A DNA stretch of 64,000 nucleotides, taken from Balanoglossus misakiensis. Lineage: Eukaryota; Animalia; Hemichordata. The DNA is taken from NCBI GenBank assembly GCA_040954595.2, contig CM082577.2, positions 12,841,903 to 12,905,902 of the forward strand, in the 5' to 3' direction. The notes beneath the pieces were generated by a model. The model worked only from the letters and a program-made list of their open reading frames with translations. It had not been told where the DNA came from and did not search any database. The number at the start of each line of letters is the position of its first letter. Positions within the stretch are counted from its first letter, which is position 1. The translations under genes were made by a program, and so were the position numbers. This document shows positions 6,853-63,400 of this stretch, in pieces.

Positions 6853-6924
6853 ACACATACACACATACATACATACATACATACATACATACATACATAC
6901 ATACATACATACATACATACATAC

Positions 6925-7316: not shown

Positions 7317-7317
7317 T

Positions 7318-7335: not shown

Positions 7336-7360
7336 TTTCTATAATTTCGGACAAACTGAG

Positions 7361-38679: not shown

Positions 38680-40488
38680 CACGGGAATTGACGAGACTTG
38701 ACCTTGACCCAGTTTAACGACCTTGCTGATCTCGATCATATGAAACGTTTATCAAGACGATTAATCACCTGTAATCATAGGAATAGACACTTAGCTCTCT
38801 ACTTTACCTATGCCTACACTTGCATGCATGATTATTACTATTCATAGACCTTGAAGAGTTCTGTTTTGGTTGAAATGCACTGCACGTTATCCAAGAATGC
38901 ATACGGCGACTAATATTTATCCATTTCACCATCAAACCTATAGAGCGGATGTACCTCTCACATTGTTGGTAGAATGAATACGAAGCAGTTAATATCGTAA
39001 ACTGCCAATAATGGCTACGTGAAATTTTAAAATCTCAGTTGCAGACGAAATGTCGCGACAATCACCCAATAGGTGATTTTAAGTTTTGTTGGTATGGGCA
39101 TGTCGTAGACCATTTAAAGCATGTACTCTGTAATCTTGAGATTGTAAAATTAAAGTTGATTTTTATCAAACAGGACGTTGGCTTTAAATTGACTCTTTTG
39201 GTCGAAAAATGACTTTTCATTAAAAACTACATATTGGTTCACAACAAGTGGTCATCTTCATCATCAATAAAACATATCTTGAATAGATCCAACGCCTTGT
39301 TATTCCTTTATCTTTATAGAAACGTGCACATCTCCAGAACCGTCGGATCCCTCAAATATGAAATTTGCCTTAAATGAGTATAATTTTCCCAAAAAGCGGT
39401 CAAATTTGTAAAAAAAAAAATGACCACCGATTTGGCAGTTTCGTCAATCCGTCTGATCAAAAGAATAACTTACATGACTGTATGATTCAAAACGGTTACA
39501 AGTACATATCCACTAGAAATGCAAATGAGGATAAATTTGATTTTGACTAAACTGACCACCAACAATACGGTTGGCTCGACTGGGGTTCAGGGTTTGGGGG
39601 GAATGGCTGGGGGTTATATCGGAGTGAACGTGAAACAGGGTCACTATGCAGAATACTCCCTAGCGAAGAAGGAAAATATACACACCTGTTGGATTTAGAC
39701 GGCTAAATTCGAAATTTTCTTCAAAATACACACATTGATATAAACAATCCACAATATTTCTCCCGTTAATAACCTTCAAATAATGAATCTGCCTCGATGT
39801 TTACAATTATGTTGATTATTTCTTGTAGTCAGTACTCGCTATCACTCCATATTCCCACTATGTTACGTGGCCCTACAGAGCTTTATCGGCATATGATAAA
39901 TGTTGAGACGACCCAAAACGGGCCAAACGATCACAGTCGGAAACGACCCATTTCATCAAGTAAACGACCTAAAACAATCACCTTGGGTATTCAGGGGTTA
40001 AATAAACTCCTAAATTCTAGAGAAACGCACCGAAAATACGGTGAAAACCAGCCAGACAGTTGATCATTGCAAATATCCTATATATGACATCAACGAGTTA
40101 AGGGGCCCCATATCGCCTTCCAGCTACACACCTGAAATAGAGTGTTACAATGAATTCTGCCTCCATAGTGTTTGTTGATATAAAATAAAGATCAATAAAG
40201 AATCTTGTTTGTCTTTATATTTGCTTGTTTCAGTAGTTTTCTGTTTACAAATTGCAGTAAATTATTAAGGCATATACACTGCAGTTGTGTGGTTCTGTTG
40301 AAGTATGTGAAAATCAAAATAAATTATAATGAGAAATAAATAACATTGAAAAATGCAGAGCATGAAAGGCGTTAAAACATGTAACAGAAATTATAAATGT
40401 ACAAACAATCATTTACCAACCAGCCAAGCAACCAACCAAACAACCTACCTACCTACCTAATAATACGTACATACCTACCTAATCTACC

Positions 40489-40740
<252 letters not shown>

Positions 40741-40838
40741 TTGTGTAAACATACATGTGTGTATAATCTTGTTATCTTGATTTGGTTTTCACTGAGAAAA
40801 GACGCGTGAATTATGATTAATTAATTTTTATTGGGTGT

Positions 40839-41971
40839 TTAAATCACACACATCGCACATGTTAATTCGTACCCATCTACATACGGTCCACATGGTAAGC
40901 CAGTGCCAACAGGACAACGGCTTTCGACGGAATACAGTCGACCAGCATTGACGGCGTCCACGGTGCTGGGTAACATTCTTCCTTCGATGTCCACGCAAAC
41001 GTTCTCGGTCGTTTGGTAGTCGTACTTGGCAGACATCAAGTAGCCGTGGTAAGCAATGTCCCACCCGGCGGGACAGTCGTTTCTAGCCGGGTGTAGTATC
41101 ACGTTGTTGTGGGACTCATCCAGGCAAACTGCACAAGAGACGTCGTTGTACAGGTTGGATGCGAAGGGACCGCTTGTTGTACGGTATTCGTTGTGATATA
41201 TGTAGCTTCTTTCCAGTTGAGAGCCACTCACAACAACGTTCATGTCATATATTGGTACTCCCGGCAAACACAGATAGTTTCCACCATTTCCAGTGTTGCT
41301 GAAGTATTTGGTGCCCATTATTCCTGAAATAAATACACTGGGGTTACACGTTTTCCATTAGGTATCGAACTTGCTATCCCGTTACTAGATACATTTTCAC
41401 CTGTGATACTCGTATTTTGCAGTAAAGGTGACTCTTTTGTGCCGTCCACGTACTCAGTGGGCAATAAGATCATAGGGTACACATAGCTGAATTTATTTCC
41501 ATGTAATTGTATTTGCAATACTTTATTTCCAGAATGTTTCCAAGTTGTGTCGATGAAATACGAGAGCAGGTACAAATCGAGCTGTGACCCGTAGATTTGC
41601 CTCAGGCTGGTCACATCGATTGATATTGAAAGTGCAGTTACAGCGCGCATATATCGGTATGGTTGGACTTCGAGAACGTATTCGTGTACCATTTTGTTTG
41701 TACTTGTTTTAAGTAAACGTTGGATTAATTTCAGATAGATAAACATTTTCTGTGCACCCCTTAGTGAAACTGAGTAAATATAACCCTTTCACCATCATGG
41801 TTTAGTCCAAATCCATTGTTTAATATGGTAACCCCGGGCCTTTAAAGAAGGAACTGGGGATAAAGGGTAAAGATTTAGTCTCAACATTACCATTATATAC
41901 TTTAGTCGTCGCGGTCGGGCATTCATTGTGACCCCATCTTGTGTACACAACGCCTGTGGTAACGGTCGCAG
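40839..41971 (-). CDS. Short-chain collagen C4 (spongin)-like C-terminal domain; last two exons (41891-41971 and 40839-41323), 5' exons not found
   Basis: VYTRWGHNECP...VYNG|IMG...GGNYLCLP...DVSCAVC...PARNDCPAGW..YHGYLM...VCVD...LPCGPY..GYELTCAMC*. Canonical phase-1 splice sites. Confidence 0.8.
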
Positions 41972-44488: not shown

Positions 44489-47400
44489 ATGGCTTACCTG
44501 AGAAGCTGTAAAAGGTTACAACATCGTCGTGAAGTACCTTTGAAGTTAACACTCGTCGCTTCATTGGTGATGTTGTCGATGACATTACTGCAGCAAGCAG
44601 GTGAGACACTACATTTGGGTTTTGTATGTTCAGAAAGTTTGAAGTTCCTCAAAACAGGAACTTATAATTATTATCATTGTTTCATGTATGATTGTAATAA
44701 AGACTAAATGTTTAATATCCAGATTGCATCAACGTATTCCATGTTTACGATCGGATGGGTCACGCTGAAGCCTACACGTTTTGTGAGCGATTGGGTCTCC
44801 GCCTTGTTAAAGATGACAGCGAAGAAAAACACACAGCTATACGAAAAACTTCAAAGAAACGAGGCATCGCAGGCTGGTATTCCTGGCTAGATGCTCGACT
44901 GAATGACAACGGAGACGTAGTCACCCGAGACGGGGAAATTTTGACCTACAAGCCATCGGTTGAAAGGATTGCAGGGCAGTGCCTCTCAATTAAGTGAGTT
45001 GAAGATTTTGTATTATATATTAAAACATGAAAAAAACAACGTAGCATAACATAAAGAAATCACATGGAATCATGTGCAGAGGCATGCCATATTCATAGTT
45101 ATATATCAGTTGAGACAGAATTGATTAAACTGTCAATGATATCCATGCAGATGTTACAATAGGCAATGTCTTCAGAACACAATTTTGGCAGTTGCGCACC
45201 GATACCTCGATTTTATGGGAAATTTTAATCGTCAACATTTACCTCATTTGTGTAGTATTAGACCAAGTTTACCTAATTCTCAATTGTCTCCGAGTCTTTA
45301 CCAAATTAAAGGGGAACTGTAGAAAACGTTTTATGTAGTTTGACAGATGTGCGGCCTGACAGGCATTAATGGGGTGAAACTTTAATGTACTTACATTCCA
45401 TTTTAATTCACAGAGATGGAAGCTGGGAATTTTTCCAGTGTTCGGAACCACGTCACCCTTTATGTGAAAATACAAGTAGGTTATAGTTTCATGAAGATTT
45501 TTGCAACTTTTACTCGATTTCGAATTTTTCGGGAAAGAAATGGCGTTGTTTTCTAATCTGCAGCATCTTTCGACTTAACTACCACATGGAATGATATGGT
45601 GGGTGCATACCAGCTATGTAAAAAGCTTGGGTTGCGTCTTCTAACTGACACCACTGACTGGAAAATCAAGCAGTACTGTGCGTCCCTTGGGTGCCGTCAA
45701 GCGCCTGCTCGAGGTGTGTGGATTGATGCTACCATCACGGCAGATGGCACTGTGAAGACAGGCAGTGGTTTGATATTGGAACACACGCATTTTGCTCCTG
45801 ACCAGCCACTCGATGCCGGATCGTGTATAAGAACCACGTGAGTCGTTGTCTGTTCACACTATTTTCCACTATGCCCAACAATATAGACATACTTTTATCA
45901 TTGCTTTCATGACTGTTAAGGCGTTGAAACTTCCGAGATTACATGGCAGTTCACTGATTTGAATATCTGTGTATTGTTACGTTTTCCTATCCCGAAGATT
46001 ACACTCTATTGTTAAAAATCACTTTGCACTGTTTCTGGTATTTTGTCAAGTTTATGTTTTATGTTTTGGTAACTAACTGTATCTGGGTTATCATCTGAAT
46101 TGCAAAGCACAATTTGAACATGATACTTTACAGCTAACGCTGATTGCAATATCATTCCGACCCCGGCCGTACAGCATAATAGACAGTGGATGTAGGAAAT
46201 GTATCAGAAACATGTCCATACAAATTTGACTCTTAAAATTCAAAGTACAGTAATTATTGTAGACATTGTAAACTTCAATAAGCGTTGAATAGTGAATCTT
46301 TATACAGGTGTACTGCGGCTACATGTTTATGGAAAACTGAACCTTGTAATACATACCTGTATGTTGTTTGCGAGGATAACGGTGAGTATTTGATGAATCT
46401 CGTTCATTAATTTTCCTTTTCCTACATGTTTGAATGCCTGTGTAGTTTTGTGGTATGAACACATATACACCTAATGCCACTAAAAACGGAACGTAGACAA
46501 ATGCATACGCGTACATTTATCCGCGTGGAAGGGAGTCACATTGGAAATATCCAAATGTATAATGGACCATTAATTTTTTGCTTTCGGTAAATGGATAATT
46601 GAAATAAAAGTTGTATTAATCATCAACGTGTTCGTGGCGTAACCAGATGAGATAATGCACGCAAATAATATATGGACGCAAATAATTGAAATTCGGCGTA
46701 TTGCCTTGCACATTTGATTTCCACGTACGTTAAATTGTCTGCTTTTAGTGCCTTGTCTACACCAATTGATAAAATGACAGAACTTCATGACCTCTGCGCG
46801 CGACCTGTGCAGTACGGATGTTATTTTCATGAGTGATAAGGTGTATTCTTCTGAGTATTTTTATGAGCGACAGCGAGTAAAAGTACTCCTAAACTTCGCA
46901 AGTTCGAGAGTTAGTATGCACATAATAAATAACGCATGAAATTACTATCACATATGACTACCATAAGCCGAAAACGGAAAGGAAATGATTAAACATGTTC
47001 CTTCAGGAAATGGATGAATTGAAACAAAAGTTGTAATAACCAGGGGAGATTTTGTTGAAGTACATTTTGTTGGATTTTATAGAAGTTTGGCATTGACTGG
47101 AAAGGTGTCTTCCGGGGAAAACGTTATATTCAGTATTACTTTAAATCGTAATTGTCTTTAAATTGATGAAATAAAATTCAAACTTTGCCATCTGTCACAT
47201 TATCTTCCCTTTACATTTGCAACATCCAGATGATGACTTACTTCTTCTGCGGGAGAGGTTGGTCAAGATAAGTGACGATGAATTCAGAACAGCAGATGTG
47301 GTAAGAAAGGATCCAATCATTTGAGACTGATGTAATGCACTGTATTGTATAAAGCCACAAGTTAGTGAAATCCACTTTTTGACAACTAATGCTACGTTCT

Positions 47401-50400
47401 AAATTAATTTCACATAATGCTTTAAGCCACATACTATGTAATTGTCTTTACACGTATATTAAATGTCTCTATGTGATATAACTCTATTGTGACAACTAAA
47501 GCTTCATGCTAAATAATGCTACGCACGGCTGTAAAGCCACATACAAAATAATTGTCTTTTCTCTTTCCAGGGTATTAGTGTAATTGACAAGTTGGGCACT
47601 GTAACCTCTGACCTTTTAAATAAAAGTGTCATATTTGAAGGAAGAATTCTATTTGCAAAAGGTATGGTGATATTTGTTGTTTAAATCAAGATGATTCTGT
47701 GACATCTGTATCCTCCACATATCATCCAATGATGTAAAACGATATTGGTGTCAGGCGCAGAAAAAATATCACCTTGCAATTATAAAGCTTACCGAAAATG
47801 CGTCAACCACAGTTCGTTTGTTTCCACAAATCATGCAAATTATTGTTGGCCGTCAAATATCTTACATTTAGCTTAGAGAAACTTCGAGCATTGGACGTGG
47901 CCAAGTTTTGAATGATACGCTGAATTAGAAGTGGAAGAAAATAATAGTCCGGTCCCCTGCCCGTTAGAGTAGCGCAGCCAACGGTGGGATTGGGGCAGGG
48001 GACCAGACTAAAGGATCGGACTCCATTGTCTCGTCATCATTTTTCCAAATGGATTCAAGAAATGAAATTCATTCAATAACCTTCGGGCATTGGTGTAAGG
48101 CCGAGAAATACAGTCAGACAGAGTGAGGTAGTTTTAAATGCCAGTGTTTACCTATTTCAGAAACACTGAATGTCATGCAAAAAGTGATAGACAGAATGCA
48201 GTCCCTAATTGACGCCAATCCGAACCAGAGGCTGAATCCCGGGCAGGCAAATCACCTGACAAAGAAAATAACGAAAGCATTCGACCAGTTATCAATGTTT
48301 ATACTGAACGAGACTACTTGTGGGCATGGACCAATCATCGCGAGAACTTCTTCTCTTGTTCTACATCTGGAAAAGAACTTTGTGCCCTACTTGAGCAACG
48401 TCACCATAATGATAGGAGATGGGAGTGGATTCAGTATTCCACCTGCAGACAGTATGTTTCCACAATTGTCGCGGGACACAGTCTTGAACAGAATGGTCCG
48501 TATGCAACTTCGATAACAATAAGAAAAAATATCACGTTTATTTATATCAATCATTACTCTATTCTTGTATATGGATATTTGTATAACTATTTGCTGCCAT
48601 TTAACTTTAATGTCACGTCCTGGGTGGCTGTTACTTATATATGTGTTGTGTCATGAACCCGTTGTCATTTTCTTTTACAATATAAGACCATAAACAAAGT
48701 ATCTTTGGTTTAATGTAGAATTCTGGTGTTGTCATAATGCATTCTGGTGCTCGGGGAATAATTTAAGTAAGTCTTTTTTTAGATATTTCGTTTCGGTGGG
48801 AACCCTCATGGGTTGGCAAATAGGACTCATGGCTTCACTACCGATATACTGTCCCTGGAATTCAGAGATGGAGATGGTAATGAGATCAAAGGTTGGTTTT
48901 CATTAAGGCCATCACCTGTTAACTTTGCACCATTTAAACCGGAAATGGCGAAATCCTTTACCTAGAAACCCAGTGACATACTTATAGAAACATACCATCT
49001 TGGATGGCAGAAGTCGATTAATAACTGATTTGTGAATTTAGTTTTGACATCAGTGTAAATTATCACGGAAAATGTTGCTTTTCAGTGAAACATGCATCAG
49101 AGGATCTCGGTGTATGGCTTGGAAATCATCAGACACCTTTTAATGAAAGCATCGTCAGGGGATTATACGTGGAAAGGGAAGGAGTCACTCACTATGCATT
49201 GACAGTAACGGTAATCTTCACATACTATATAAAGTTCACTTATCATTGCATTTTTTTCTGATCTTGTCTGTAACATATTTCTATTTGATCATCTATCATT
49301 ATAGAATGATAAATAATTTGCGTCATTGTTACTTAGGTATCGCTACAGCGATACGCAGATTCCGGTTACCAGCCTTTGGCTTTAATATCAATTTCCTTGA
49401 CATCATTTACAGTGGACATGGCCATAAGTTTCGATTTATCTATAGTTGTTTGACCTGTAAGTTAAGGTACTCTGAAATGGCTAAACAAGACATTGGTGCC
49501 ATTTCAAAAACAGTGTTATCGTTTACCTCACAAACTTCATTGTGTTAACTTTATCTCAATTTCGTATTTTTTTTCGTCGTAGGCGCTATCGGCCTACTCT
49601 GCATTTCAAATCATCGTGGAAGCATCAGTGCCTGTCTTCGAGACTACTACAGCATACGTGTCACTGGAAAGACTTGACGCCGTCGGTGGCCACAGTGGTT
49701 CCCATTATGTAACTGAGTTGGTATTTGCAGGGTGTACAGCATCCATATTTCTACCAGAAGCAAAGGTCACCAGGACGGGCTTGTATTATATAGTCTTTGA
49801 CCTTACCAGTGGTAAGATTGTAGTATTGTTTTTTGATGTTTATGTCACTGTAACATTAAAATATCTACATGTACATATTATAGTATGTAATGCCACGATC
49901 TTGTGATTTCATTAAAGCATAAAGAGCTGCCACTTTTTGCATTTTTTCGTGATTTTTACCTCGTGTGATGATAGCAAGGTAGTGTTTCGCCACTTTTGTG
50001 TCTATCTGTCTGTCTGTCTGTCTGTTAGGGCGACATTTCATCAAAGGCTAATCAGAATACGATCACCTCTATTGCACAGGTTTTATATGCAAATGGAGAG
50101 AACTGGTTACTTTTTGTGGGTGTCATATTAAGCTAAATAAATACATTGCCATTATAAAGTATGTTACAAGTTCTAGTGAAAATAGCGTAATTACCGGCAC
50201 GTTGCCACAAAATCCCCAATTCAATGTTTCTCTGTTGGATTGACTCACATATTGGCGGACATTTTGAATTTAAAATATTAGAAAATATTCCATCGTGACC
50301 CCTGTTTCACTACTATAAAGATACTTCAGTTAATTTTTAGCTCTGCTGTCACTTGTTTCAGCCGAGCTGTAGCAGTAGGTTGATAAGTGTCCGTCCGTCG

Positions 50401-52201
50401 TCCGTCCGTCCGTCCGTCCGTCAATCGTCTGTCAACTTTTGGTATTTCAGTCTTCTTCTTTAAAACAACTTGGCATATTAAGCTGAAATTTGGTTGGAAT
50501 GTGTGATATGGTGCCCCTACCTGATTTTGTTAATTTGGATTTGATCGGGTCATGAATATGCAAATAAGACCTAAAAATAGATTTTTTTAATCTAAAATCT
50601 TCTTCTCCATAACTACATGTACGATGGAGCTCAAATTTAGTAGGAATGTGTGTTATGGTGCCCCTACCTGATTTTAATAATTTGGATATGATCGGGTCAT
50701 GAATATGCACATTAGATCTAAAAATAGATTTTTTGGTAAACATCTTCTTCTCCCTAACTACATGTACGATGGAGCTGAAATTTGGTAGGACTGTGTGTTA
50801 TGGTGCCCCTACCTGATTTTAATAATTTGGATATGATGGGGTCATAAATATGCAAATTAGATCTAAAAATAGAATGTTGGGTAACAAATCTTCTTCTCCC
50901 TAACTACATGTACGATGGCGCTGAAATTTGGTAGGAATGTGTGTTATGGTGCCCCTACCTCAGTACCTGATTTTGTTACTTGGAATTTTGATGGGGTCAT
51001 GAATATGCAAATTAGAACCTTGGTGCTTCCTTTTGATGTTGTTCTTTAGGATTCAATTCTTTCTTTCTTTAGCACAATGAATCAAGCTGAATTTGGATAA
51101 TAATTGTGATGTCTATGTTTGGTTTTGTACAATAGAATGCAATTGTTATCATTAAAACCTAGGGTATTCATATCATTGCCCAGGTTACTCTGTTAAAGTC
51201 AGCAGAGCTCTTTTGACCGATAGGTCACTTGTTCATGAAATAGGTTTAAGAAACCGAAGTTAGTTCTCTTATTCTTTTTCTCTACAGCCCACGGGGTTGA
51301 CATCAAGGTCCTCACTACTCAACACAGATGTAGCTACTTTGATGAGACTAACTGGCAAAATGATGGTTGTAAGGTATGAACGCTTCTTCCAATTTTGCAA
51401 TAATTGGTATGCTCCCTGTACTTACAAGCGATGAAACTAAAGACAAGTGACTATTGGTGTGATTTTAGCGGATACTGCGGATAACTATGAAACAGAAACT
51501 TAAAATGCAGAAGGTACTGCACCTTACGATTAATGCTGACACGTGGAAACTACTTTTAACTCAATTAGCACTGATGTTAGTCTAGAATCTATCCGTTCGT
51601 AGTCGCATTCACCCTACTACCGTCTAGGACCGCAGAACCAAAATCTAGTAAGGCCATAAAAATGGTAATTTGAATGTGAATAGTCTCCAACTGAGCAGTC
51701 TGACGTCAGAGAAGTCAATCACTTACGTTGACCGACTACTGATTGGCCGTGAGGTGATGACGTTGAATGTTAATTATGTTTACAATGTAGCTCCGCCCCG
51801 AATGATACATAATCATGATCACGTGGTGACGCTTGACGTCAGATTGCTCAGTTGGAGACTATTCACATTCAAATTACCATTTTTATGGCCTTACTAGATT
51901 TTGGTTCTGCGGTCCTAGACGGTAGTAGGGTGAATGCGACTACATGTACGAACGGATAGATTCTAGACTACACTGATGTATGTGAGAACGCTTTTCCATT
52001 ATACATTATAGCTGGGACGTAAGCCAAGTGTTTGATCTTGTTTCACTTGCAGAGAAACGCCCACTGCTGTGTCAGTATGTATTTGTTCTGCTTGTTATCT
52101 TGCAGGTGTCACCAAAATCCGACTTCAATTCTACCCTGTGTCTGTGTAATCACCTGACTGTTTTCAGTGCAATGGTGGGAGTTGTTCAATCTGATGGATG
52201 A
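44489..52201 (+). CDS. Copy A: signal peptide + 2 C-type lectin domains + polycystin-1-like GAIN/GPS domain, no TM region; 13 exons, 644 aa
   Basis: Exons 44489-44600, 44723-44993, 45414-45475, 45564-45837, 46308-46381, 47230-47300, 47571-47661, 48161-48495, 48783-48891, 49086-49210, 49583-49811, 51288-51373, 52106-52201. All introns are GT-AG with consistent phases, total 1935 nt. GPS reads CSYFDETNWQNDGCKV...TLCLCNHLTVF. Confidence 0.85.
50334..51233 (+). mobile_element. Helentron-associated (HINE/DINE-1-like) element with ~4 internal ~146-bp tandem repeats
   Basis: Starts with TTTTT, sub-TIRs AGCTCTGCTG (50339)/CAGCAGAGCT (51200), a (GTCC)n tract, a 3' hairpin TGACC-GATA-GGTCA and CTTGTT. 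An older similar relic starts at ~49953. Confidence 0.8.
51578..51970. mobile_element. Foldback MITE (393 bp), TAG...CTA termini, 9-bp TSD
   Basis: ~130-bp near-perfect TIRs and TSD CACTGATGT at 51569-51577 and 51971-51979. An AcademH-like assignment is inference. Confidence 0.88.
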
Positions 52202-53640
52202 TGCCACGTTTAATACAGGGCGTCCGTTTGGTCTACAGAACTGACAAATTAAGCTTATGAAACGAGTTCTAAACTATTAAACCACGATCGTGACGTCACA
52301 CTATTCAATAGACAAGTCATTCACTGAGAGAACCTCTGTCTCACACAAAACCACAGGTTGAAAACCAAGTCCCGGGTAGTTCTAGAACTACCTCCGGGGG
52401 TTCTAGAACTGCCGCAGGACTCAGTCTCACCTGTCGTAACAAAAATACAAATAAACAAAGCTTTATTTGCATAATTACATTTACTTCTATACCTGTATTC
52501 AAAGGACATTTCATTTGAATAGAGTAATTGTTATGTTAATTGAAAGCGAACTGGATATGCGACAGTCTCCGGATCATTTCATTCAATGCTTCACATTCAC
52601 AGTTTTGTCTACTGACGTACAAAGCTAATGCCTTGGTGGCTCTCGAGAGTCTTCATAACATGATAAAGTATAAAATAGACAAAAATCAATTCACCAGAAA
52701 CAAACTAACGTTGCAATAAATTCACTAAAAATTTCTAGAAAATTATACTAAATCACATTATCCCCAGATTTGCTTGTATTACTCTAACCCGATGCTTCAC
52801 TTCGATTTTGCTTCACTACCGACAAGTAACAAGGTTGGCTGTTTTAGGCCTACTGTTTAACAAAACCCGCGTACCTTGCAAAATTCTGCTTACTTTTTGT
52901 TGCTGTACACCAGATGTGCGTTTGTAATGACGGACGGCTTCATTTCGGTATCAAGTCTTTTAGCAGATGAGTTACTCACCAATATCGCTACCATACAGAC
53001 GCGTTGCCGCTGTGGCTCGTAGAGAGCGGCTCGTTCAAAAACCAGGGAGGCCAATACACAGACGGGCAGTAGTACCATGTAGAGCATTGTGACCCGGTTT
53101 TTGCTTTACCAACATGTAGTCGCTTGTTTTCGCAGATGATATAGATCGGAACTACATGTATCTTCAGATCGATTTCATGGACATTTGAAGGAAAATAAAC
53201 TAAAAACGTGAGACTTACATGTAGGCCTACTGCATTTGGCCTAGAAAATTTTCGCGTAAGCTTACCATGTGCACGCAAAACCCCAATAGCTGTATCCCTT
53301 CCCATAATACACTACGTATCACACCTGTAAAGTTGAATTTGATGCAAATTGAAGTTTGAAATTAGCATATCACTCCGACACGTAAGCATGAACATTTAGA
53401 GTAACACCTGTCAAGCGTGAGCGATCTTGTAAGGCCCAGCAGGGCGGTCTAGAACTACCTGCCCACGACATGATTCATTTATAGAAAGAGGGGTGGCCAA
53501 CCAAATTTCACAGCCAGCAATGAAGAATAAGCCTCTTTTGATAAGCTTTTGTTCGTTCCTTTTATTGAATCGTTGTGTAAAACGACGTCTTTATGGTATA
53601 CAAAGCTCCAATGGTGACAATGTCTGTGGGGGATCGTGGT

Positions 53641-53759
53641 TTAAGTTAGAGAACCACCTCCCCCTCAGTGGTTCTTGGTTTCCAATCGCCTCGGGCATGC
53701 GGCCCTCGGCGATTCGAAACCAAGAACCACCTCAGGGTCGGTGGTTCTCTATTACTTAA
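53641..53759. repeat. ~120-bp imperfect hairpin, probably the end of a non-autonomous element
   Basis: AGAGAACCACC...GTGGTTCTTGGTTTC / GAAACCAAGAACCAC...GGTGGTTCTCT. Confidence 0.7.
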
Positions 53760-53896
53760 CGTACCATTCAAAATGTATTCGTGTTTTTAAATTTATTTAA
53801 TATAAACTTTATGAAGTTTTGGCAATATATTTTGGTGATAATGCCTTAACTGTGAAAAGAATAGGTGCCAAAAAATTGTCCGAAAGAGAAGCGTTA

Positions 53897-55432
53897 GGGA
53901 CTGTCCAGAATTTACTTCCAGGGGAGGGGGGCACTCACTTTCCCCAAGAAAAATTAGGGGGGGGGGCAGACGTAAAAATCACAGTCCTTTATAGGGGGGG
54001 GGGGCATGTAAAAACCCTCACAATCTCAGTATTTGCCCAGAAGTACTGATTTATAAGAAACAAACCACCATGGCTACCTGGATGACAGATGAACTCCACA
54101 AGTGTATTAAATCTTCATAGGCTGGAATTTCCGGTAATTTTTACGGTGGGTTATTTTGTATATCTACTACAGTTTATTGTTCTACTCTGTGAAGCATAAT
54201 AAAATGTCCAACTTATTTGGCCTGCCAGCACATACCATATATGTACGGTGAACAGTCAGCGTTGTTACTGTTGATAAAACTGAGCTTAATTCAAGTCCAG
54301 ACAAGTTTTAAAGAATTAGACTTTTTTGACAATCTATTTACTTTTATATGACAAAAGATACCAGCAGCTAGTGATAAATTAATTTCTTTGCAGTCTGAAT
54401 CGTGCTTGTCTACAATTTTTGTGAGGCTCAACACAGTCGAATTTGCAATTTCTGTCTCAATGAAAAGATATTAATGGCACCCTGCTTTCTGGTAATATTA
54501 AACTTAAAGAGACATTAGATTTAACTTTTGTCAATTTTAATCTGTATGTTTTAGTCCTCTGTGTCAAGTGCACATTCGTGGTCCACTCCTCAGAGTATGC
54601 TCATGTGTAACTGAAAATATTCTGCCTGTGATGTACCTATTGTTTTGATTATAGTACAAACACATAAAATTATATTGTTTTGTGCCAGCCAAAATTGTAA
54701 AAAAAAGTTTTGAAAAAACATAAAATTGTGCATGACTACATTATTTTTTAATTTACCCATTGAAAAACAAGAAACATTTCATTTATGTTTTTGCCAAAAC
54801 TTGCAGAATCTTTTGAAAATACTGTACAGGACACAATCTCATATTTAATTTGAATTTTCTAAAAAAAACACTTGATTGTTGATTGTTAAAAGGAGAAAGT
54901 AAAATGTGAAATTGTTAAACAATTGATTATTGTCAATTTCCTGAAACTGTCACACATAACCCATTTAAAAATGGTGTATTGAAAATATAAATCAAATACT
55001 ATGTCACTCTGCTTGATATTGTTGATACAACGATCATAATTGTATATTTTCCTTTGAAAAACCTCTGATGCAAAAGTGCTGACGCAGCGTTTTTTGACAT
55101 GGCTTATACACAACTTAAGTGTGTGATGTAGTGGACATAGGAGGAAGTTTTGTCATAATTAATTTATTTTCAGAAAATTACAATCTTATGACCACTTAAC
55201 TTGTCTCTTGATTGTTCTTGCAAAGGGTGATGAACTTGTCTTGTCAGACTGTATGTGCTGTAGTCTGTAAGCATGCATGTATTTATGAGGGGGCCATGGA
55301 AAAACAAGAAATTTAAGGGGGGCCACAGGTTTCCTCCACAATTTACTAGGGGGGGGGGGGTCATGGAAAAAAATCACCAGGAAAATAAGAATTCCTCCAG
55401 CCCCACCCTGGAAGTAAATTCTGGACAGTCCC
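53897..55432. mobile_element. Non-autonomous PIF/Harbinger-like DNA transposon (1536 bp)
   Basis: Perfect 27-bp TIR GGGACTGTCCAGAATTTACTTCCAGGG, TTA on both flanks, no ORF. Confidence 0.85.
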
Positions 55433-56128
55433 TTAGGTTGAGTGCGTCTATGATTGATTTGTTTATATAGTACGATGTAATTGATACATTTATTTGTAAT
55501 CTGCCAGAATAGGATATATACATGTAAACATTGATCAATATTTCTGTTTTGTAATAACCAGTACTGTCACTTGCCATTGTAATAACCCGTAATTTCACTT
55601 GTCATTTATTCGTGGAGTTATAGTATTCTAAAAAAAATTGTATGTGTTTGCCATGGATTGCTTTGGATTATTCTGGTTGACATTAAAGCGTACACTTACT
55701 GTACACTGTGTATGTATGGCGTCTCACCCCTCCCCACGAATCACATGACATCCCTCTTTCGCCGTTTCTTTTTTGCAAAAAAAAAAACTGGACTGAACTT
55801 TCCTTTGAGAAGAAATAAACCACAGAAGTTACAAGTAATCATAACCAGCACCAACAACTACTTAAACGTTTATTTGTAAATGTGTCCTAATACTGACCAC
55901 AAAAATGGTTAATAAACAATAACAGGCAAAGAAAACGGTTTATACTCTCTGTGTGTCTTGGTTAGAATTCTTAATCAGAGCATTTTGTCAGTTTGTGATG
56001 AGAAATGGCTAAAGTGTGTAACCTTTGATATATATACTACGGAATCACGTGTTTCAAATACAAATACCATTCAGAACAATGGACGTTATTCATTGGTGCA
56101 TATGGCCAGGGAATTACACTATTCAAGT

Positions 56129-56528
56129 TAGTCTCGGTTACCCAGACCCCTCTGCTTCTTCCTTTGGGCAATCCAGAAAGAGGGTCTGGGAATACACCAT
56201 AGAAAAATCTCCGGGCAAAGATGGCCGACTCGAGGCAAAACCGATGTATGATGGTCAACATTCATGACATTTGATATTATGATATGACGATATTATAAAA
56301 CTCTTTACCAAACTTCTCTCTCTCTCTCTCTCTGTTCAATTCGTGGACAGTTTTAGAAGGTCCAGCACTTCTCGGCATGTTTTTTTATGTTTGAGGCTGC
56401 AACCATCATGCATGGCCTTTGCCTCGAGTCGGCCATCTTTGCCCGGAGATCTTTATATGGTATTTCCCCAGACCCTCTTTCTGGAGGGCCCAACGGAAGA
56501 AGCAGAGGGGTCTGGGTAACCGATACTA
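56129..56528. mobile_element. Foldback MITE (400 bp), TAG...CTA termini, degenerate 9-bp TSD
   Basis: ~125-bp imperfect TIRs; flanks TATTCAAGT and TATCCTAGT. Confidence 0.8.
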
Positions 56529-57411
56529 TATCCTAGTGTTCTAGTGGATGAGGTCAGGCTTTGTTATAAATTCTCTAGGAGGGAAATACAACGTTTTCAT
56601 TTTATTTTGTATTTTTCAAAGGTGGCGGCCATATTCCTCAGCGGCAAAACTTTTTTATTTTATCTGGTTAAAACGGATGTTGGTAGATTTTGCAGATACT
56701 TTCTTACCATATGTGCTGTGTTGAATTCTAAAGAGCGTGTATGTATCTTCACCAACATTTCCCACAACAGAAATAAATCATCATCCGAATAATGCAAATT
56801 GAGATGGCATGGTAGGCTGTAGAATATTACAAATTGCATTTCTAGAACTACAAAGTTTGAGAATAAGATATGTTGCCATAAATAAATTAAAGCCACTCTT
56901 TCATTATCTACTTCAGATCTCCATACCTGTAGGTTAACCTCTCGGCATCCGCATTGTGGCATTCGTGGAAAATGCACTGAAGGGAAGAAATTAAATATAT
57001 CTCACATGCGCACTCAAGTGAAATGCATATTTGCGAGACAATATGCCGAATTTCTATTTTTGTATCCAACCGACGTTTTATACAAGATCCCCACACGAAC
57101 GCTTTAATGATTAATACCACTTTTGTGTATTTATCGATTAACCGGGAGCAACATGTTAAATATTAATTAATTCCATTTAATCTTGTGACATTCATAAAAA
57201 AAAATAATTTTTAATGTCACGCATTTCTTAACATGTGTATAATAATTACAAGTGTGAAAACATCTAACGCATAAATGAAAGAACACGACACAGCGTCTCC
57301 ATTTAGCACCTGGTCTCTCTCTGCAGTGGTTACAATTCTTTGCAAAACACACATAATGTGTCAAGATGTTCATATATAAAATGATCGCAGATTAGTCGCA
57401 AACTCGCAACC

Positions 57412-60400
57412 ATGGCTTACCTGAGAAGCTGTAAAAGGTTACAATATTGTCGTGAAATACCTTTGAAGTTAACACTCGTCGCTACATTGGTGATGTTGTC
57501 GATGACATTACTGCAGCAAGCAGGTGAGACACTACATTTGGGTTTTGTATGTTCAGAAAGTTTGAAGTTCCTCAAAACAGGAACTTATAATTCTTATCAT
57601 TGTTTCACGTATGATTGTAATAAGACTAAAGGTTTAATATCCAGATTGCATCAAAGTTTTCCATGTTTACGATCGGATGGGTCACGCTGAAGCCTACACG
57701 TTTTGTGAGCGATTGGGTCTTCGCCTCGTTAAAGATGACAGCGAAGAAAAACAAACAGCTATAGTAAAAACTTTAAAGGAACGACGCATCGCTCACTGGT
57801 ATTTCTGGCTAGATGCTCGACTGAATGACAACGGAGACGTAGTCACACGAGACGGGGAAATTTTGACCCCCAAGCCATCGCGTGAAGTTTATGGTGGGGA
57901 GTGCCTCTCAATGAAGTGAGTTGACGATTATGTATTACATATTTAAAAAAAAAACGTTTTTGTGGTCATTATAAGATATCTTAACATAAAGCAATTACAT
58001 GGAATCATGTGCAGAGGCATGCCATATTCATAGTTAGATATCAGTTGAGACAGGATTGATTGACATTTTAATGATATCCATGCAGATATTACAATAGGCA
58101 ATGTCTTCAGAACACAATTTTGGCAGTTGCGCACCGATACCTCGATTTTATGGGAAATTTTAACCGTCAACATTTACCTCATTTGTGTAGTATTATACCA
58201 ACTTGAAGTTTACCTAATTCTCAATTGTCTCCGAGTCTTAACCAAAATAAAAGGGAACTGTACAGTAGAAAACGATTTATGTAGTTTGACAGATGTGCGG
58301 CCTGACAGGCGTTAATTGGGTGAAACTTTAACGTACTTACATTCCATTTTAATTCACAGAAATGGAAGCTGGATATTTTTCCTGTGTTCGCGACGAATTC
58401 ACCCTTTATGTGAAAATACAAGTAGGTTATAGTTTAAGGTGGCATTGCATGAAAACTTGTGATTTTTGCCAGATTTTACTTTTTTACATAAATCGGTAGG
58501 CCTAATATTGACCCACATCCTGACTAATACGTCTTAGCGGAAATGGTGCATAATCACCCCAAAATAGCACTTCTCTAAATGAGTTCACAGCTTAACAAAT
58601 AGTTGTCAACAATGCAAATGGCCGTTTTTCTCAGTTTGCATTTTCGCTGTATTATCGTCATATCAGAATACTGAAATACTGGCTAAAATTGCTCAAAACT
58701 AGACCAGGTAGTATCTTGTCAACTTGTTATAAAGTACAATATGATAGAGCAGAAAAAAATATGCATTGTTGGGCACTACAGGTAAAACAACTGTTATGTA
58801 ATATGGGTTTTTCAGAAGTGTGGATGCAACAGGGAGTCTCAAATGAAAATATTTTTTTTAAATTTTTCAGAGAGAGATGTAAGGATGTACAAATGCAAAT
58901 TATCATGTGCGATGTTAAATCCATCCCTAAATTATTCACGTATAGTCGTTTCAAAGTTAGCCCACACATGGAGGAATATTTGTGTATTATTCAACACAGG
59001 GGCTTTAGAGCAGCACTGACCCGTTTTCGTTTATCAAGTCATACCTTGCGTATAGAACAGTGCAGATGGGAAAGGATAAAACCCCCAAGATCAGAAAGAA
59101 CATGTCTCATTTGTAATAAGGGGCAAATTGAAGATGAGTATCACATGTGTTTTATCTGCCCAGCTTATACAGATTTGCGAGAAAAATTCATCCCAAGCTT
59201 TTTCCTAAATCCTCCTGTAGAATATAAGTTTCACAAGCTCATGTCAACAAATAACAAATATTTATTACACCAATTGAGTAAATACATTCTCCTTGCTTTC
59301 CAAAAGAGAGATAAATTGTTACAAGGGTAGACACGATAAATGCTTTGATGGCATGACATATTATTGTATTTCTACTTTGTATTTAAAGGGCCAATCGGCC
59401 ATATATATACTGAATAAACATATTCAATTCAATTCATTTTTGCTGCTCTTGACAACTTCAGACGAAAATAGCTTCGCTCTGCGTTGGCCGAATTTGCTCA
59501 AATTTTATAACTGGGGATTGTGTATGACCCATCCAACAAAACGGTATTTTTGTTAGTCGATAAAGTGTCCCTGGCGGGAATAAACTCTGATTCAATACAA
59601 CTCACCGTGAATTTGATCAAATTTTACTGGAAATCTAACTTTCAAACGCTGTTACTCCTCAATGGAAGCAGATAACGCAAAACAAAATTACCGTTTTTTG
59701 CACGTGTACTCTAGTTTCGAATGACATATTAAGATGCATGATGCATGGTCAACTTTTTTACCTAATTTAAATTTAATGACATAATATCAAAAGATGTTTT
59801 TTTTCACCCAAAATCGCCACCATTTCCGGGGATCAAAATATTTGCAACTCAAACAAAAGTTCAAAAACTCAGCTTCCAGAATATATATGGTTTATGGGGG
59901 TTTTAACGTTGTCTTTGATGAGAAATAGGCCTCTGAAAAAGTCTCGACGGTTTCGTGCAATGCCACCTTAATGAAGGTTTTTGCAACTTTTACTCGATTT
60001 CGAATTTTACGGGAGGAAAGAAATAGCGTTGTTTTCTAATCTGCAGCATCTTTCGACCTAACTACCACAATGATTGATATGGTGGGTGCATACCAGCTAT
60101 GTGAAAAGCTTGGGTTGCGTCTTCTAACTGACACCACTGACTGGAAAATCAAGCAGTACTGTGCGTCCCTTCAGTGCAGCCGTCAAATGCCTGGATGGGG
60201 TGTATGGATTGATGCTACCATCACGGCAGATGGTACTGTGAAGACGGGCAGCGGTTTGATATTGGAACACACGCATTTTGCTCCCAACCAGCCTCTCGAT
60301 GCCGGATCGTGTATTAGAACCACGTGAGTCATTGTCTGTTCACGCTATTTTCCACTATGTCCAACAATATAGACATACTTTTATCATTGCTTTCATGACC

Positions 60401-63400
60401 TTAACTGTTAACGCGTTGTTGGAACTTCCGAGATTACGTGACAGTTCACTGATTTGAATATCTGTGTATTGTTACGTTTTCCTATCCCAAAGATTACACT
60501 CTATTGTTAAAAATCACTTTGCAATGTTTCTGGTATTTTGTCAAGTTTATGTTTTATGTTTTGATAACTAACTGTATCTGCTTTATCGTCTGACCAACCC
60601 CGGCCGTACAGCATAATAGACAGTGCATGTAGGAAATTTATCAGAACCGTGTACATTACCAAATTTGACTCTTAAAATTCAACGTACAGTAATTATTGTA
60701 GACATTGTAAACTTCAATAAGCGTTGAATAGTGAATCTTTACACATGCAGGTGCACTACCGCTACATGTTTATGGAAAACTAGACCTTGTATAAAATACA
60801 TGGGTGTTGCTTGCGAGGATAACGGTAAGTATTTGATAAATCTCGTTCATTAATGTTGCTTTTCCTATATATTTTACTGTCTGTGTAGTTTTGTGGTATG
60901 AACACATATACACCTAATGCCACTAAAAACGGAATGTAGACAAATGCATACGCGTACATTTATCCGCTTGAAATGGAGTCACATTGGAAATATCCAAATG
61001 TATAATGGACCATTAATTGTTTGCTTTCGGTAAATGGATAATTGAAATAAAAGTTGCATTAATCATGGACGTGTTTGTGTCGTAACCAGATGAGATAATT
61101 CACGTATATATGGACACAATTAATTGAAATTCGGTGTATTCTCTTGCACATTTGATTTCCATGTACGTCAAATGGTCTGCTTTTAATGTCTTGTCTACAC
61201 CAATGGATAATGCTAAAGTGCTTAACCCAGCATAAGGGGGCTCCGAAGTACATCTCGATATGGTCACATTTTATTACTCTCACACTTTTGTCACCTCTCA
61301 CATTATCTGCACTTTTCATTTGCAACATCCAGATGATGACTTACTTCTGATGCGGGAGAGGTTGGTCAAGATAAGTGACGATGAATTCAGAACAGCAGAT
61401 GAGGTAAGAAAGGTTCCAATCATTTGAGACTGATGTAATACACTGTATTGTATGCTACGTCCTAAATTAATTTCACATAATGCTAAAAGCCACATACTAT
61501 GTAATTGTCTTTACACGTGTATTAAAGGGCACTATGTGATATGACTATTTTGTGACAACTGAAGCTTCATACTAAATAATTCTACATAAGGCTATAAAGC
61601 CACGTACTAAATAATTGTCTTTTCTTTTAAATTTTCAGGGTATTAGTGTAATTGACAAGTTGAACACTGTAACATCTGACCTTTCAAATGAAAGTGTCAT
61701 ATTTGAAGGAAGAATTATATTTGCAAAAGGTATTATGACATTTGTTGTTTAAATCAAGATGATTCTGTGACATCTGTATCCATCATTTTCGATATCAACC
61801 AATGATGTAAAAACGATATTGGTATCAGACACACAAAAAATAGCACCATGCAATCATAAAGCTTACCGAAAATGCGTCAACTACAGTTCGTTTGTTTCCA
61901 CAAATCATGCTTAGAGAAACTTCGAGCATTGGACGTGTCCAAGTTTTGAATGATACGCTGAATTAGAAGTAGGATACGATAGTCTGGTCCCCTGTCCTAT
62001 AGCGTAGCGCAGCCAGCGGTGGGATTGGGGCAGGGGACCAGACTAAAGGATCGGACTCCATTGTCTCGTCATCATATTTCCAAATGGATTCAAGAAATGA
62101 AATTCATTCAATAACCTTCGGGCATTGGTGTAAGGCCGAGAAATACAGTCAGACAGAGTGAGGTAGTTTTAAATGCCAGTGTTTACCTATTTCAGAAACA
62201 CTGAATGTCATGCAAAAAGTGACAGACAGAATGCAGTCCCTAATTGACGCCAATCCGAACCAGAGGCTGAATCCCGGGCAGGCAAATCACCTGACAAAGA
62301 AAATAACAAAAGTATTCCACCAGTTATCAATGTTTATACTGAACGAGACTACTTGTGGGCATGGACCAATCATCGCGAGAACTCCTTCTCTTGTTCTACA
62401 TCTGGAAAAGAACTTTGTGCCCTACTTGAGCAACGTCACCATAATGATTGGAGATGGAAGTGGATTCAATATTCCACCTGCAGACAGTATGTTTCCACAA
62501 TTTTCGCGGGACACAGTCTTGAACAGAATGGTCCGTATGCAACTTCGATAACAATAAGACAAAATATCACGTTTCTTTATATCAATCATTACTCTATTCT
62601 TGTATATGGATATTTGCATAACTATTTGCCGCCAGTTAACTTTAATGTGATGTCCTGGGAGGCTGTCAGTTTTATATGTGTTATGTCATGGCACCCATTG
62701 TCATTTTCGTTTACAAATAAGACCATAAACATTTCTTGTAAGTATAATCTATGGTTTAATGTAGAATTCTGTTGTTGTCATAATGCGTTCTGGTGCTCGG
62801 GGAATAATTTAAGTAAGTCTTTTTTTTACACTTAGATTTTCCGTTTCGGTGGGAACCCCCATGGGTTGGCAAATAGGATTCATGGCTTCACTACCGATAT
62901 ACTGACCCTGGAATTCAGAGATGGAGATGGTAATGAGATCAAAGGTTGGTTTTCATTAAGGCCATCAGTGATATCCTTACATTCGCATGGAACTCTCAAT
63001 TTTTTTACCTGTTAACGTTGCACCATTTAAACCGGAAATGGCGAATTCCTTGACCTAGAAACCCAGTGACATACTTATAGAAACATACCATCTTGGATGG
63101 CAGAAGTCGATTAATAACCGATTTGTGAAGTTAGTTTTGACATCAGTGTAAATTATCACGGAAAATGTTCCTTTTCAGTGAAACATGCATCAGAGGATCT
63201 CGGTGTATGGCTTGGAAATCATCAGACACCTTTTAATGAAAGCATCGTCAGGGGATTATACGTGGAAAGGGAAGGAGTCACTCACTATGCATTGACAGTA
63301 ACGGTAATCTTCACATACTATATAAAGTTCACTGATCATTGCATTTTTTCTGATCTTGTCTGTAACATATTGCCATTTGATCATCTATCATTATAGAATG

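Follow-up and report, generated by a model that had tools for sequence, protein, structure and literature searches.

Within the 64-kb window (the whole stretch of DNA analysed), a gene of 13 exons occupies positions 44489-52201 of the forward strand. We rebuilt its exon model independently and arrived at the same exon number and length as the initial annotation: GT..AG ends are present in 12 of 12 introns, and the coding sequence of 1935 nt is an open frame for 644 amino acids and a stop. Exon 1 (44489-44600) carries the start codon in the context ACCATGG, followed by a basic n-region and a hydrophobic core, which constitute a predicted signal peptide. The bulk of two successive C-type-lectin-like domains is encoded by exons 2 (44723-44993) and 4 (45564-45837), and these domains are closed by exon 3 (45414-45475), placed by a phase-consistent search and showing a W..C......CE pattern, and by exon 5 (46308-46381), respectively. 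A GAIN-like region begins with a helical part in exons 6 (47230-47300) and 7 (47571-47661) and extends through exons 8 (48161-48495), 9 (48783-48891), 10 (49086-49210) and 11 (49583-49811), and the two halves of the GPS motif lie in exons 12 (51288-51373) and 13 (52106-52201). A Toll-like receptor gene adjoins the lectin-GAIN gene, and Pfam matched none of three further ORFs in the window.

The model aligns colinearly to the RefSeq protein XP_070568693.1 (P0123) of Ptychodera flava, with 47% identity over residues 268-630 (E 2e-105), 39% over residues 9-274 and no gap at any exon junction. Exon 2 aligns to the Lectin_C domain of P0123 and exon 4 to both P0123 and P0146, and exons 3, 5-7 and 9-11 are colinear with P0123. 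The donor of exon 8, ATG|GTCCGT, is weak, yet the same colinearity confirms it. The GPS block is far better kept in this alignment than the remainder of the chain.

The initial annotation had described two C-type lectin domains. The first retains a weak Pfam Lectin_C match (exon 2 alone, 17.9 bits, E 0.005, cut-off 22.6), whereas the second, in exon 4, has no Pfam match of its own and meets solved-structure sequences only by chance. Its assignment comes from the Cys/Trp pattern and from alignment to relatives that carry Lectin_C: the domain of P0123 aligned to the lectin-like part scores 39.8 bits, and P0146 has two Lectin_C stretches. The Ca2+/sugar-binding motifs of C-type-lectin-like domains are EPN or QPD, and WND. 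By eye, neither EPN nor WND is present in either domain, and the second domain has PDQP at the equivalent place.

Exon 13 is translated as VSPKSDFNSTLCLCNHLTVFSAMVGVVQSDG followed by the stop codon, and the C-terminus of the protein reads CLCNHL|TVFSAMVGVVQSDG and then ends. The codons for His, Leu and Thr lie at 52151-52159, the predicted cut falls between codons 52154-52156 and 52157-52159, and the resulting tail of 14 residues (52157-52198) is terminated by the stop codon at 52199-52201, in the same exon as the GPS. The reading of exon 13 bears out the earlier description of a complete GPS motif followed by 14 amino acids and a stop. Four Cys and the conserved Trp are present (C..W...GC in exon 12, C.CNHL|TVF in exon 13), as are the consensus residues for self-cleavage at HL|T. 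With only half the motif, exon 13 scores 20.5 bits against Pfam GPS (E 7e-4, cut-off 22.5), and its closest match among solved-structure sequences is the GPS of ADGRG6 (E 0.0054); exon 12 has none among these sequences. In a 19-residue hydrophobicity scan, only one segment of the protein is strongly hydrophobic (1.91, at residue 16), and the best value after residue 40 is 1.56.

The expected fold of about 320 residues, a helical subdomain A and a beta-sandwich subdomain B embedding the GPS, was tested on the relatives P0153 and P0149, to which residues 317-636 of the 644-aa model are 29% and 32% identical. In the AlphaFold model of P0153, block-mean pLDDT values of the GAIN part range from 63 to 94 and are mostly at least 80, and adhesion-GPCR GAIN structures account for 12 of the top 13 Foldseek matches against the PDB. 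The model of P0149 has a mean pLDDT of 85.8, and GAIN structures make up its top eight matches (8 of 8). Compared with solved structures, the predicted models of both relatives thus adopt the GAIN fold, at modest TM-scores of 0.34-0.59. By its 29-47% identity to relatives, the 644-aa protein probably shares it. Placement of the tail inside the fold is predicted for P0149, whose seven tail residues make up the final strand of the model (354-358; pLDDT 70 in the last block), but not for P0153, whose 18 tail residues are left unplaced (pLDDT<50).

An exhaustive HMMER search with exon 8 as query (E<=1e-3) returned 36 proteins. Thirty relatives were traced to their sources: 27 to RefSeq models of P. 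flava, one to Glandiceps talaboti and two to short contigs. Members in P. flava are spread over several chromosomes. Two of the 36, P0141 (a bacterial repeat protein, eight short stretches) and P0154 (six short stretches, no family features), are probably chance matches, and the Pfam scan was made on the other 34. Blastp of the spliced 644-aa model against the family gave E-values down to 3e-104, with alignments reaching residues 630-636; P0150 lacks a middle segment. No matches came from word-index protein searches, whether the query was exon 8 or exon 13 extended by nine intron codons, and the ESM Atlas returned only noise for exon 8 (IS66 transposases at 0.84, with recognition below the usual level).

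Pfam found heads of the types HYR, Lectin_C, F5/8C, Pentaxin, SUEL, PAN, SRCR or NHL in the 34 relatives, and 7tm_2, PLAT, PKD_channel or REJ in none of them. The GPS was detected in 14 of 34, always at the extreme C-terminus and above cut-off in 6 of the 14. In all 15 relatives with a visible GPS the chain ends 0-23 residues past HL, and in 8 of these [T/S]xF is kept after HL. The gene models of the relatives all lack a membrane part, and those of two other acorn worms, P. flava and Glandiceps talaboti, end likewise. The earlier proposal of a GAIN/GPS module with no membrane part behind it is thereby supported, and the GPS-then-stop proteins that it suggested seeking in related genomes were found. 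Orthologues continuing into TM domains, which would have marked a one-off truncation, were looked for and none occurred among the 34 by Pfam. We found no description of such animal proteins in the literature; the relatives are known only as uncharacterised RefSeq models.

The 3′ end of the gene still rests on gene models and one contig, and here the most serious alternative arises. The model may be incomplete: the mRNA, or a major isoform, may splice from ATG|GTGGGA or from a shared downstream site to TM exons situated past the whole array of copies, the arrangement of gene clusters that combine variable heads with a constant tail, and so yield an ordinary membrane receptor. The donor-like GTGGGA (52175-52180) follows an ATG codon in phase 0, and since the weak GTCCGT is used at exon 8, weakness alone does not exclude it. 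The array continues off the window, and the GAIN domains analysed by Araç et al. 2012 all directly precede a TM helix, according to the accessible part of that paper (PMC3321182). Furthermore, 6 of 15 P. flava models stop 0-1 residue past HL (HL*, HLT*, HLK*) and resemble cut-off models. The GAIN fold should not tolerate such a stop, so some P. flava models may be 3′-shortened; if they are, the family-wide lack of TM segments could partly reflect annotation habit.

Several observations stand against such a continuation. A TM-family domain occurs in 0 of 34 relatives, and in several relatives the tail has the common [T/S]xF and continues in frame after it, for example TTFAEDK and TTFTEDK in two paralogues. 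A second copy of the gene (copy B; the gene at 44489-52201 is copy A) has an ATG and a signal peptide of its own, 5.2 kb further on, and the interval 52201-57400 contains no convincing TM or PLAT exon and no phase-0 TM exon of any quality, as the initial annotation had held. Nor is there a multi-TM ORF anywhere in the 64-kb window, simple repeats set aside. A TM mini-exon candidate at 54089 (36 hydrophobic codons, then a stop) was rejected for its poor acceptor pyrimidine tract and its position in repeat DNA.

One contig of run X3 (depth 2.9, RNA-like) joins copy-B exon 11, at its end, with exon 12 and then with exon 13, each time where the model predicts it and with GT..AG ends at the 12-13 joint, and extends through the weak donor for 17 nt, up to 52191. 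The kind of run X3 is only guessed ('DNA?'), the three runs all come from one sample, and none that contains the gene is on record as RNA. The spliced contig is about 95% like copy A and therefore derives from copy B or another copy; its final 97 nt are unplaced, and that copy's end is therefore also not visible. Splicing from ATG|GTGGGA to TM exons, the outcome that the initial annotation named as fatal to its proposal, is thus opposed by a contig that reads through, but one of low depth and from another copy. A further X3 joint, 52178->53796 (depth 4.6), was rejected as a splice, as it has GA..TA ends and lands in AT-rich DNA without an AG; we read it as diverged downstream sequence of another copy, and as mRNA its frame would meet a stop after two codons. 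Taken together, we judge a membrane receptor with a missing 3′ part unlikely.

Downstream of the stop codon, ATTAAA at 52276-52281 (75 nt past the stop) is a candidate poly(A) signal. The AATAAA noted earlier is indeed present, at 52450-52455, but it is part of a 1.5-kb insertion (52282-53773) missing from another copy in the DNA runs (joint 52281->53774 in X1 and X2), and ATTAAA is nearer. The insertion is repeat-like by contig depth, with contigs of depth ~2000 covering 52363-52846. Intron 12 holds a hairpin element (51599-51943; 110-nt arms, 99% complementary) that is absent from other copies (joints 51549-51572 -> 51971-52016).

Copy B begins at 57412, where the next paralogue had been placed, and its exons 1-11 (57412-63830, forward strand) form an open frame with AG/GT kept in 11 of 11 exons; the remainder, GPS exons included, lies beyond the window, and the array runs off its end. 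This second tandem copy is kept open by selection. At the intron rate about 15 indels would be expected between copies A and B, and three gap openings are seen, all frame-keeping; the probability that 102 random changes introduce no stop is 0.02. In the GAIN part dN/dS is 0.40 (15 of 26 changes non-synonymous, P=0.02), and in the lectin part it is 0.79 (P=0.24).

These values bear on the idea that a former receptor gene lost its membrane exons and that both copies are its decaying remains, encoding a functionless protein. The relaxed ratio of the lectin part would fit such decay, as would the lack of any RNA run on record that contains the gene and the transposon-rich locus, with insertions right after the stop and in copy B intron 3. 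However, neutrality would carry a 98% chance of a stop together with the expected indels, whereas both copies are open with their splice sites kept, the GAIN part is constrained, and the same architecture recurs in a different genus, where identity is 47% and the GPS block is almost unchanged. We regard decay as highly improbable. In another reading, the N-terminal hydrophobic segment would be an uncleaved signal anchor: the protein would be a membrane protein of type II, its GAIN domain would form the outward-facing free terminus, and self-cleavage would set loose just the 14-mer. The long, basic n-region and the unfavourable Gln at -3 of the most probable cleavage site, LQQA|DC, fit this reading, but it is hardly credible given the ordinary, cleavable-looking signal peptides of relatives such as P0126, P0143, P0148 and P0153.

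On the basis of these results, we favour, with a probability of roughly 0.6, the view that the 644-aa protein is secreted without a membrane anchor and belongs to an acorn-worm family whose members join differing recognition heads to a GAIN domain at the C-terminus. The family itself is likely real, lineage-specific and made up of secreted proteins with GAIN as their last domain. The features of the model are secretory (one N-terminal hydrophobic core, seven N-x-S/T sites and 20 Cys), and the protein would enter the secretory path. Its GAIN domain would fold around the tail as the last strand and cut itself at HL|T, and the 14-mer would remain attached non-covalently. Extracellular targets, either glycan or microbial/matrix, would be bound by the lectin-like heads, which change fast, and the GAIN domain would act as a stable stalk or a module for interactions, not as a trigger for a receptor in its own chain.

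Because the chain ends 14 residues past the cut, the tethered-agonist logic has no receptor in cis. The initial annotation had imagined a decoy ectodomain, or a lectin-gated cage delivering a Stachel peptide in trans; both are pure conjecture. Extended to the family, the idea would be of secreted, self-cutting proteins with interchangeable heads and a caged Stachel-like peptide, the HL-ending members having an empty Stachel groove. These proteins could supply other cells' receptors, of the adhesion-GPCR or polycystin type, with an agonist peptide, or trap the agonist that such receptors expose. We consider this improbable; if true, it would amount to a diffusible form of tethered-agonist signalling.

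The GAIN domain is a hallmark of adhesion GPCRs and polycystins, and to our knowledge the working rule of the field is that it always directly precedes a membrane helix, with cleavage and force presenting the receptor of that chain with its tethered agonist. A conserved, expanded family of secreted proteins with GAIN as their free C-terminus would mean that the domain is useful in itself: it could be a scaffold, hold a small peptide like a latch, or pair with receptors in trans. With a natural GAIN protein that is small and soluble, cleavage and strand release could be studied free of a membrane, and the family adds fast-evolving, lineage-specific lectins to a deuterostome group with little-studied immune and matrix repertoires.

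Among known proteins, P0123, uncharacterised and listed as 'serine-rich adhesin for platelets-like isoform X2', likewise has a signal peptide, two lectin-like domains, a GAIN-like region and a terminal GPS whose block is nearly identical to that of the 644-aa protein. In P0123, however, four HYR repeats separate the lectins from the GAIN region, and the model ends HLK* with no tail. The best structural matches of the two modelled relatives are the solved adhesion-GPCR GAIN domains (ADGRL1 4dlq, ADGRB3 4dlo, ADGRB2 8oek, ADGRG6 6v55 and CD97 8ikj). Adhesion GPCRs share with the 644-aa protein a GPS with four Cys, a Trp and HL|T followed by TxF, and variable adhesion domains in front. In these class B2 receptors, however, a 7TM part (Pfam 7tm_2) follows GAIN, whereas here the stop codon comes 14 residues past the cut and no TM helix directly follows.

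The 'polycystin-1-like' label of the initial annotation gained no support: no REJ, PKD or PLAT domain was found, the nearest solved folds being those of adhesion-GPCR GAIN domains, and such wording occurs only in NCBI automatic names, four relatives being called polycystin-1-like or REJ-like. REJ was found neither at E<=0.01 in the 34 relatives nor at E<=1 in exons 2, 4 and 8-13. In the accessible text of Gunaratne et al. 2007 (PMC1934368), sea urchin SpREJ1-3 combine lectin domains, REJ, a GPS and 1-11 TM segments, and SpREJ10 has neither TM nor GPS. As far as that text goes, the PKD1/REJ family, chiefly SpREJ1-3, shares with our family the ambulacrarian lineage, fast-evolving C-type lectin heads, the GPS and tandem or expanded families. 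In contrast, the REJ module, PLAT and TM occur in 0 of 34 relatives, the TM1, PLAT/LH2 and 1-11 TM segments typical of polycystin-1/REJ proteins are absent from window and relatives alike, and the 644-aa protein, unlike SpREJ10 as portrayed there, keeps a GPS without TM.

Two further systems are comparable through those parts of their descriptions available to us. Microbial GAIN-like (MAIN) domains provide a self-cleaving fold outside the GPCR context (Brogan and Rudner, bioRxiv 2026, 10.64898/2026.05.12.724683) and, likened here by description, are also fused to varied adhesion or enzyme domains; unlike them, the 644-aa protein has no anchor after the cut. Shed or N-terminus-only forms of adhesion GPCRs, for which trans or 7TM-independent signalling is described (Pharmacol Rev 2026, PMC13197933), are likewise soluble GAIN ectodomains, there acting on other cells. 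Those forms arise by shedding or splicing from full receptor genes, whereas the 644-aa gene would itself encode the ectodomain and a short post-cleavage strand only.

Independent reconstruction of gene A (44489-52201, plus strand) from stop-to-stop frames and a search for phase-consistent GT/AG sites yielded 13 exons, with 12 of 12 introns bounded by GT..AG, and an open frame of 1935 nt encoding 644 residues, the length given in the initial annotation. The spliced model aligns with many relatives across the whole GAIN part, where identity to P0123 (Ptychodera flava XP_070568693.1) is 47% (E 3e-104); identities are 43% for P0126 and P0131, 32-33% for P0136, P0125 and P0149, and 29% for P0153. 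Both lectin domains align with P0123 at 39% identity, with zero gaps at exon junctions, and this gap-free colinearity confirms the model with its 13 exons, the weak donor GTCCGT of exon 8 included. Conservation between the two proteins is much higher in the GPS block than in the remaining protein, and P0123 carries four HYR repeats, whereas gene A has none.

The C..W...GC half of the GPS is encoded by exon 12, while exon 13 (52106-52201) translates to VSPKSDFNSTLCLCNHLTVFSAMVGVVQSDG, followed by TGA. Pfam was run exon by exon: exon 13 scored 20.5 bits (E 7e-4) against GPS and exon 2 scored 17.9 bits against Lectin_C, below the respective cut-offs of 22.5 and 22.6. When exon 13 was compared with the sequences of solved structures, the GPS of ADGRG6 matched best (E 0.0054); in it, ...CLCNHLTHFGILMDV pairs with ...CLCNHLTVFSAMVGV.

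The stop codon of gene A shares exon 13 with the GPS. A membrane-bound product would call for a splice from gene A to membrane exons that has escaped detection, and the donor-like ATG|GTGGGA at 52175, in phase 0, offers a starting point; we regard such a splice as rather unlikely. A search of 52201-57400 for phase-0 acceptors with hydrophobic frames returned one poor candidate only, at 54089, and when hydrophobicity was scanned in all six frames across the whole window, no multi-TM frame emerged except in simple repeats, in agreement with the previously reported lack of TM exons before 57412. Gene A is contained in no run recorded as RNA. Of three runs from a single sample, the small run X3, whose kind was guessed as 'DNA?', provided a 301-nt contig (depth 2.9) with two joints: one links 63829, the end of exon 11 in the tandem copy B, with 51287, and the other, which has GT..AG ends, links 51371 with 52104. 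Both coincide exactly with the joints predicted for exons 11-12-13. The contig has 4 differing positions per exon relative to copy A and therefore derives from copy B or another copy. It reaches 52191 and so passes the weak donor by 17 nt without splicing there, its last 97 nt being unplaced. A further X3 joint, 52178 to 53796, was rejected as a splice; it has no splice-site ends, lands in AT-rich DNA and is read as the diverged flank of another copy. The AATAAA noted earlier is present at 52450-52455, but lies inside an insertion (52282-53773) that another copy lacks according to the DNA runs X1 and X2, and much of which is high-copy DNA. An ATTAAA occurs at 52276-52281, 75 nt past the stop.

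Intron 12 harbours a MITE-like hairpin with arms at 51599-51708 and 51834-51943 (110 nt each, 99% complementary), which is absent from other copies. In an X3 contig, 10 of the 12 listed changes are A>G and fall on both arms, a pattern resembling ADAR-type hyper-editing of a transcript from the plus strand. These changes and the spliced contig jointly suggest that X3 is RNA-derived.

Whether relatives continue into TM domains bears on the same splice. Word-index protein searches found no relatives of gene A; exhaustive searching of 1.84 billion representatives by HMMER, with the 111 aa of exon 8 as query, retrieved 36 proteins at E<=1e-3, 7 of them at E<=1e-10. The 30 that were looked up comprise 27 P. 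flava RefSeq XP models, one Glandiceps talaboti model and two short contigs; the P. flava genes are spread over several chromosomes, with 8 on one 35.9-Mb chromosome. Most are named 'uncharacterized', the other names being 'polycystin-1-like protein 2 or 3' (three), 'sperm receptor for egg jelly-like' and 'hyalin-like' (one each). A Pfam scan covered 34 of the 36, P0141 and P0154 being excluded as likely chance hits. The N-terminal heads include HYR, Lectin_C, F5/8 type C, Pentaxin, SUEL lectin, PAN, SRCR and NHL domains, and GPS was detected in 14 proteins (6 above the cut-off), always at the extreme C terminus. None of the 34 contains 7tm_2, PLAT, PKD_channel or REJ, and each of the 15 relatives in which a GPS is visible terminates 0-23 residues past HL, the residues preceding the predicted cut (HL|T).

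The endings of these models, in which a full stop denotes the end of the gene model, are diverse. Two end in 'HL.' (P0152 has a degenerate motif, 'RRL.'), three in 'HLT.' or 'QLT.' and one in 'HLK.'; single models end in 'TVFSV.', 'TAFATREN.', 'STFTITN.', 'TTFAEDKYAVGLQ.', 'TTFVAMAEQEHVMSLPLR.' and 'TTFTEDKIFHNVEYVLSKNLRNL.', two close copies that carry NYAT instead of NHLT end in 'TAFTSPTV.', and two models have the degenerate endings 'HLLPDPTP.' and 'KGLPT.'. Past HL, eight relatives retain [T/S]xF, with which the last GAIN strand begins, and TTFxEDK is common to two paralogues; the gene A tail, TVFSAMVGVVQSDG, is consistent with the [T/S]xF pattern. Six P. flava RefSeq models (P0123, P0126, P0131, P0152, P0156 and P0157) end 0-1 residue past HL, exactly at the would-be cleavage site, which is odd because the GAIN fold requires the post-HL strand. 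The six are either truncated models or natural 'pre-cleaved' ectodomains in which loss of the last strand is tolerated or used.

Structures were predicted with family alignments for two relatives, P0153 (687 aa) and P0149 (359 aa). The pentraxin head of P0153 was poorly modelled; its GAIN part (~300-670; block-mean pLDDT 63-94, mostly >=80) is predicted to fold into four long helices and then a beta sandwich, and its 18-residue tail is unplaced (pLDDT <50). In Foldseek searches against the PDB, adhesion-GPCR GAIN structures accounted for 12 of its 13 top matches (E 4e-7 to 5e-4), the GAIN matches including 4dlq, 8vti, 4dlo, 6v55, 8oek, 8hc0, 8ikj, 8vy2, 5kvm, 9mqr and 7qu8. P0149 is essentially GAIN only (mean pLDDT 85.8, pTM 0.82), and all 8 of its top matches were GAIN structures (E 9e-8 to 4e-5, TM 0.34-0.59). 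On the basis of these matches, the models assign the family region to the GAIN fold. In the P0149 model, strand HTVCLC and turn NHLS lead into the tail TFTIT, which forms the last strand (354-358; pLDDT 70 in the last block); completion of the fold by the short tail is thus predicted for P0149 and not for P0153, one of the two models.

Copy B begins at 57412, where a paralogue had been reported, and leaves the window after exon 11 (63830); the tandem units of copies A and B start at ~43011 and ~55433. Its AG and GT sites are kept at 11 of 11 visible exons and its frame is open, with one 3-nt insertion and one compensated -2/+2 change relative to copy A. The introns differ by 5.8%, with 24 gap openings over 2794 aligned nt. 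At this rate ~15 indels would be expected in 1753 exon nt, whereas 3 gap openings were observed, all frame-keeping; in simulations, the frame stayed stop-free after 102 random substitutions in only 2% of trials. The dN/dS ratio is 0.66 overall, 0.40 in the GAIN part (15 of 26 changes non-synonymous versus 77% expected, one-sided P=0.02) and 0.79 in the signal peptide and lectin part (P=0.24). Between the two copies, the lectin heads are fast-changing and the GAIN part is constrained. Indel deficit, stop-free frame and dN/dS argue that copies A and B are kept by selection, and that they represent a decaying remnant is very unlikely.

The gene A protein has 7 N-x-S/T sites and 20 Cys. After the start codon (ACCATGG context) come a basic stretch and then a hydrophobic core of 17 residues; this N-terminal segment is the sole strongly hydrophobic window, and we give hardly any credence to its being a signal anchor.

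The window (G+C ~40%) is eukaryotic DNA with many transposons and simple repeats. A single-exon Toll-like receptor gene (25030-27930, minus strand; LRRs, TM and TIR, assigned from Pfam families of its relatives) lies 16 kb from gene A; its best relative by far is P. flava TLR4 (46% identical across 97% of the query), other matches covering more than half of the query being <=30% identical. This affinity and the species distribution of the gene A family suggest that the window comes from a hemichordate, an acorn worm that is neither P. flava nor G. talaboti. Gag-pol-like frames of 1483 and 369 aa (18280-23813, minus strand), with protease, reverse transcriptase and integrase motifs recognized by eye, are flanked by two identical 141-codon frames (17713-18138 and 24525-24950), probably the LTRs of a Ty3/gypsy-type element; a second gag-pol-like element occupies 7286-12981 on the plus strand. 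Intron 3 measures 88 nt in copy A and 1625 nt in copy B, where it holds an insertion of ~1.5 kb (58433-59970) absent from copy A. Its 244-codon frame (58596-59330) has no Pfam match, and X3 contigs on it reach a depth of 184-274, indicating that the insertion is high-copy; it is possibly transcribed. Long simple or satellite-like repeats (1-2600, 3680-4350, 6370-7040 and 40400-40820) yield frames such as (WMDG/CLSV)n and (YIHT)n, and the start of the window shows strong GC and AT skew. A Cys-rich 172-codon frame without a Pfam match (40842-41357, minus strand) lies 3 kb upstream of gene A and may belong, as an exon, to an unrelated gene.

We propose, with a probability of about 0.6, that gene A encodes a secreted member of a lineage-specific family that is expanding in tandem and combines a variable recognition head with a terminal GAIN domain. 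In analogy to GAIN domains of solved structure, the post-HL strand would sit inside the GAIN sandwich; the domain would cut itself at HL|T and the 14-mer would stay bound. The most economical guess is that the free GAIN domain, placed behind lectin heads that evolve fast, serves as a stable stalk or as an interaction module, and we would guess at a use in extracellular recognition in immunity or matrix, the Toll-like receptor neighbour being only a hint. The decoy or peptide-cage functions put forward in the initial annotation appear distinctly improbable.

Anchor-free GAIN proteins of this family exist in databases as uncharacterized models and are undescribed as far as our literature search reaches, which returned no paper on anchor-free animal GAIN proteins. 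According to Araç et al. 2012 (PMC3321182), all GAIN domains analysed there immediately precede the first TM helix, and a 2025 holozoan GPCR survey handles GAIN-7TM as a module (PMC12716839). Sea urchin REJ proteins are described as having 1-11 TM segments, SpREJ10 being the only TM-less member and also devoid of a GPS; positive selection acts on the lectin domains of the REJ proteins (PMC1934368). Adhesion GPCRs are known to act in soluble or N-terminus-only form as well, and these forms originate from receptor genes (PMC13197933); microbial GAIN-like domains are reported to be tethered to the cell envelope (10.64898/2026.05.12.724683).
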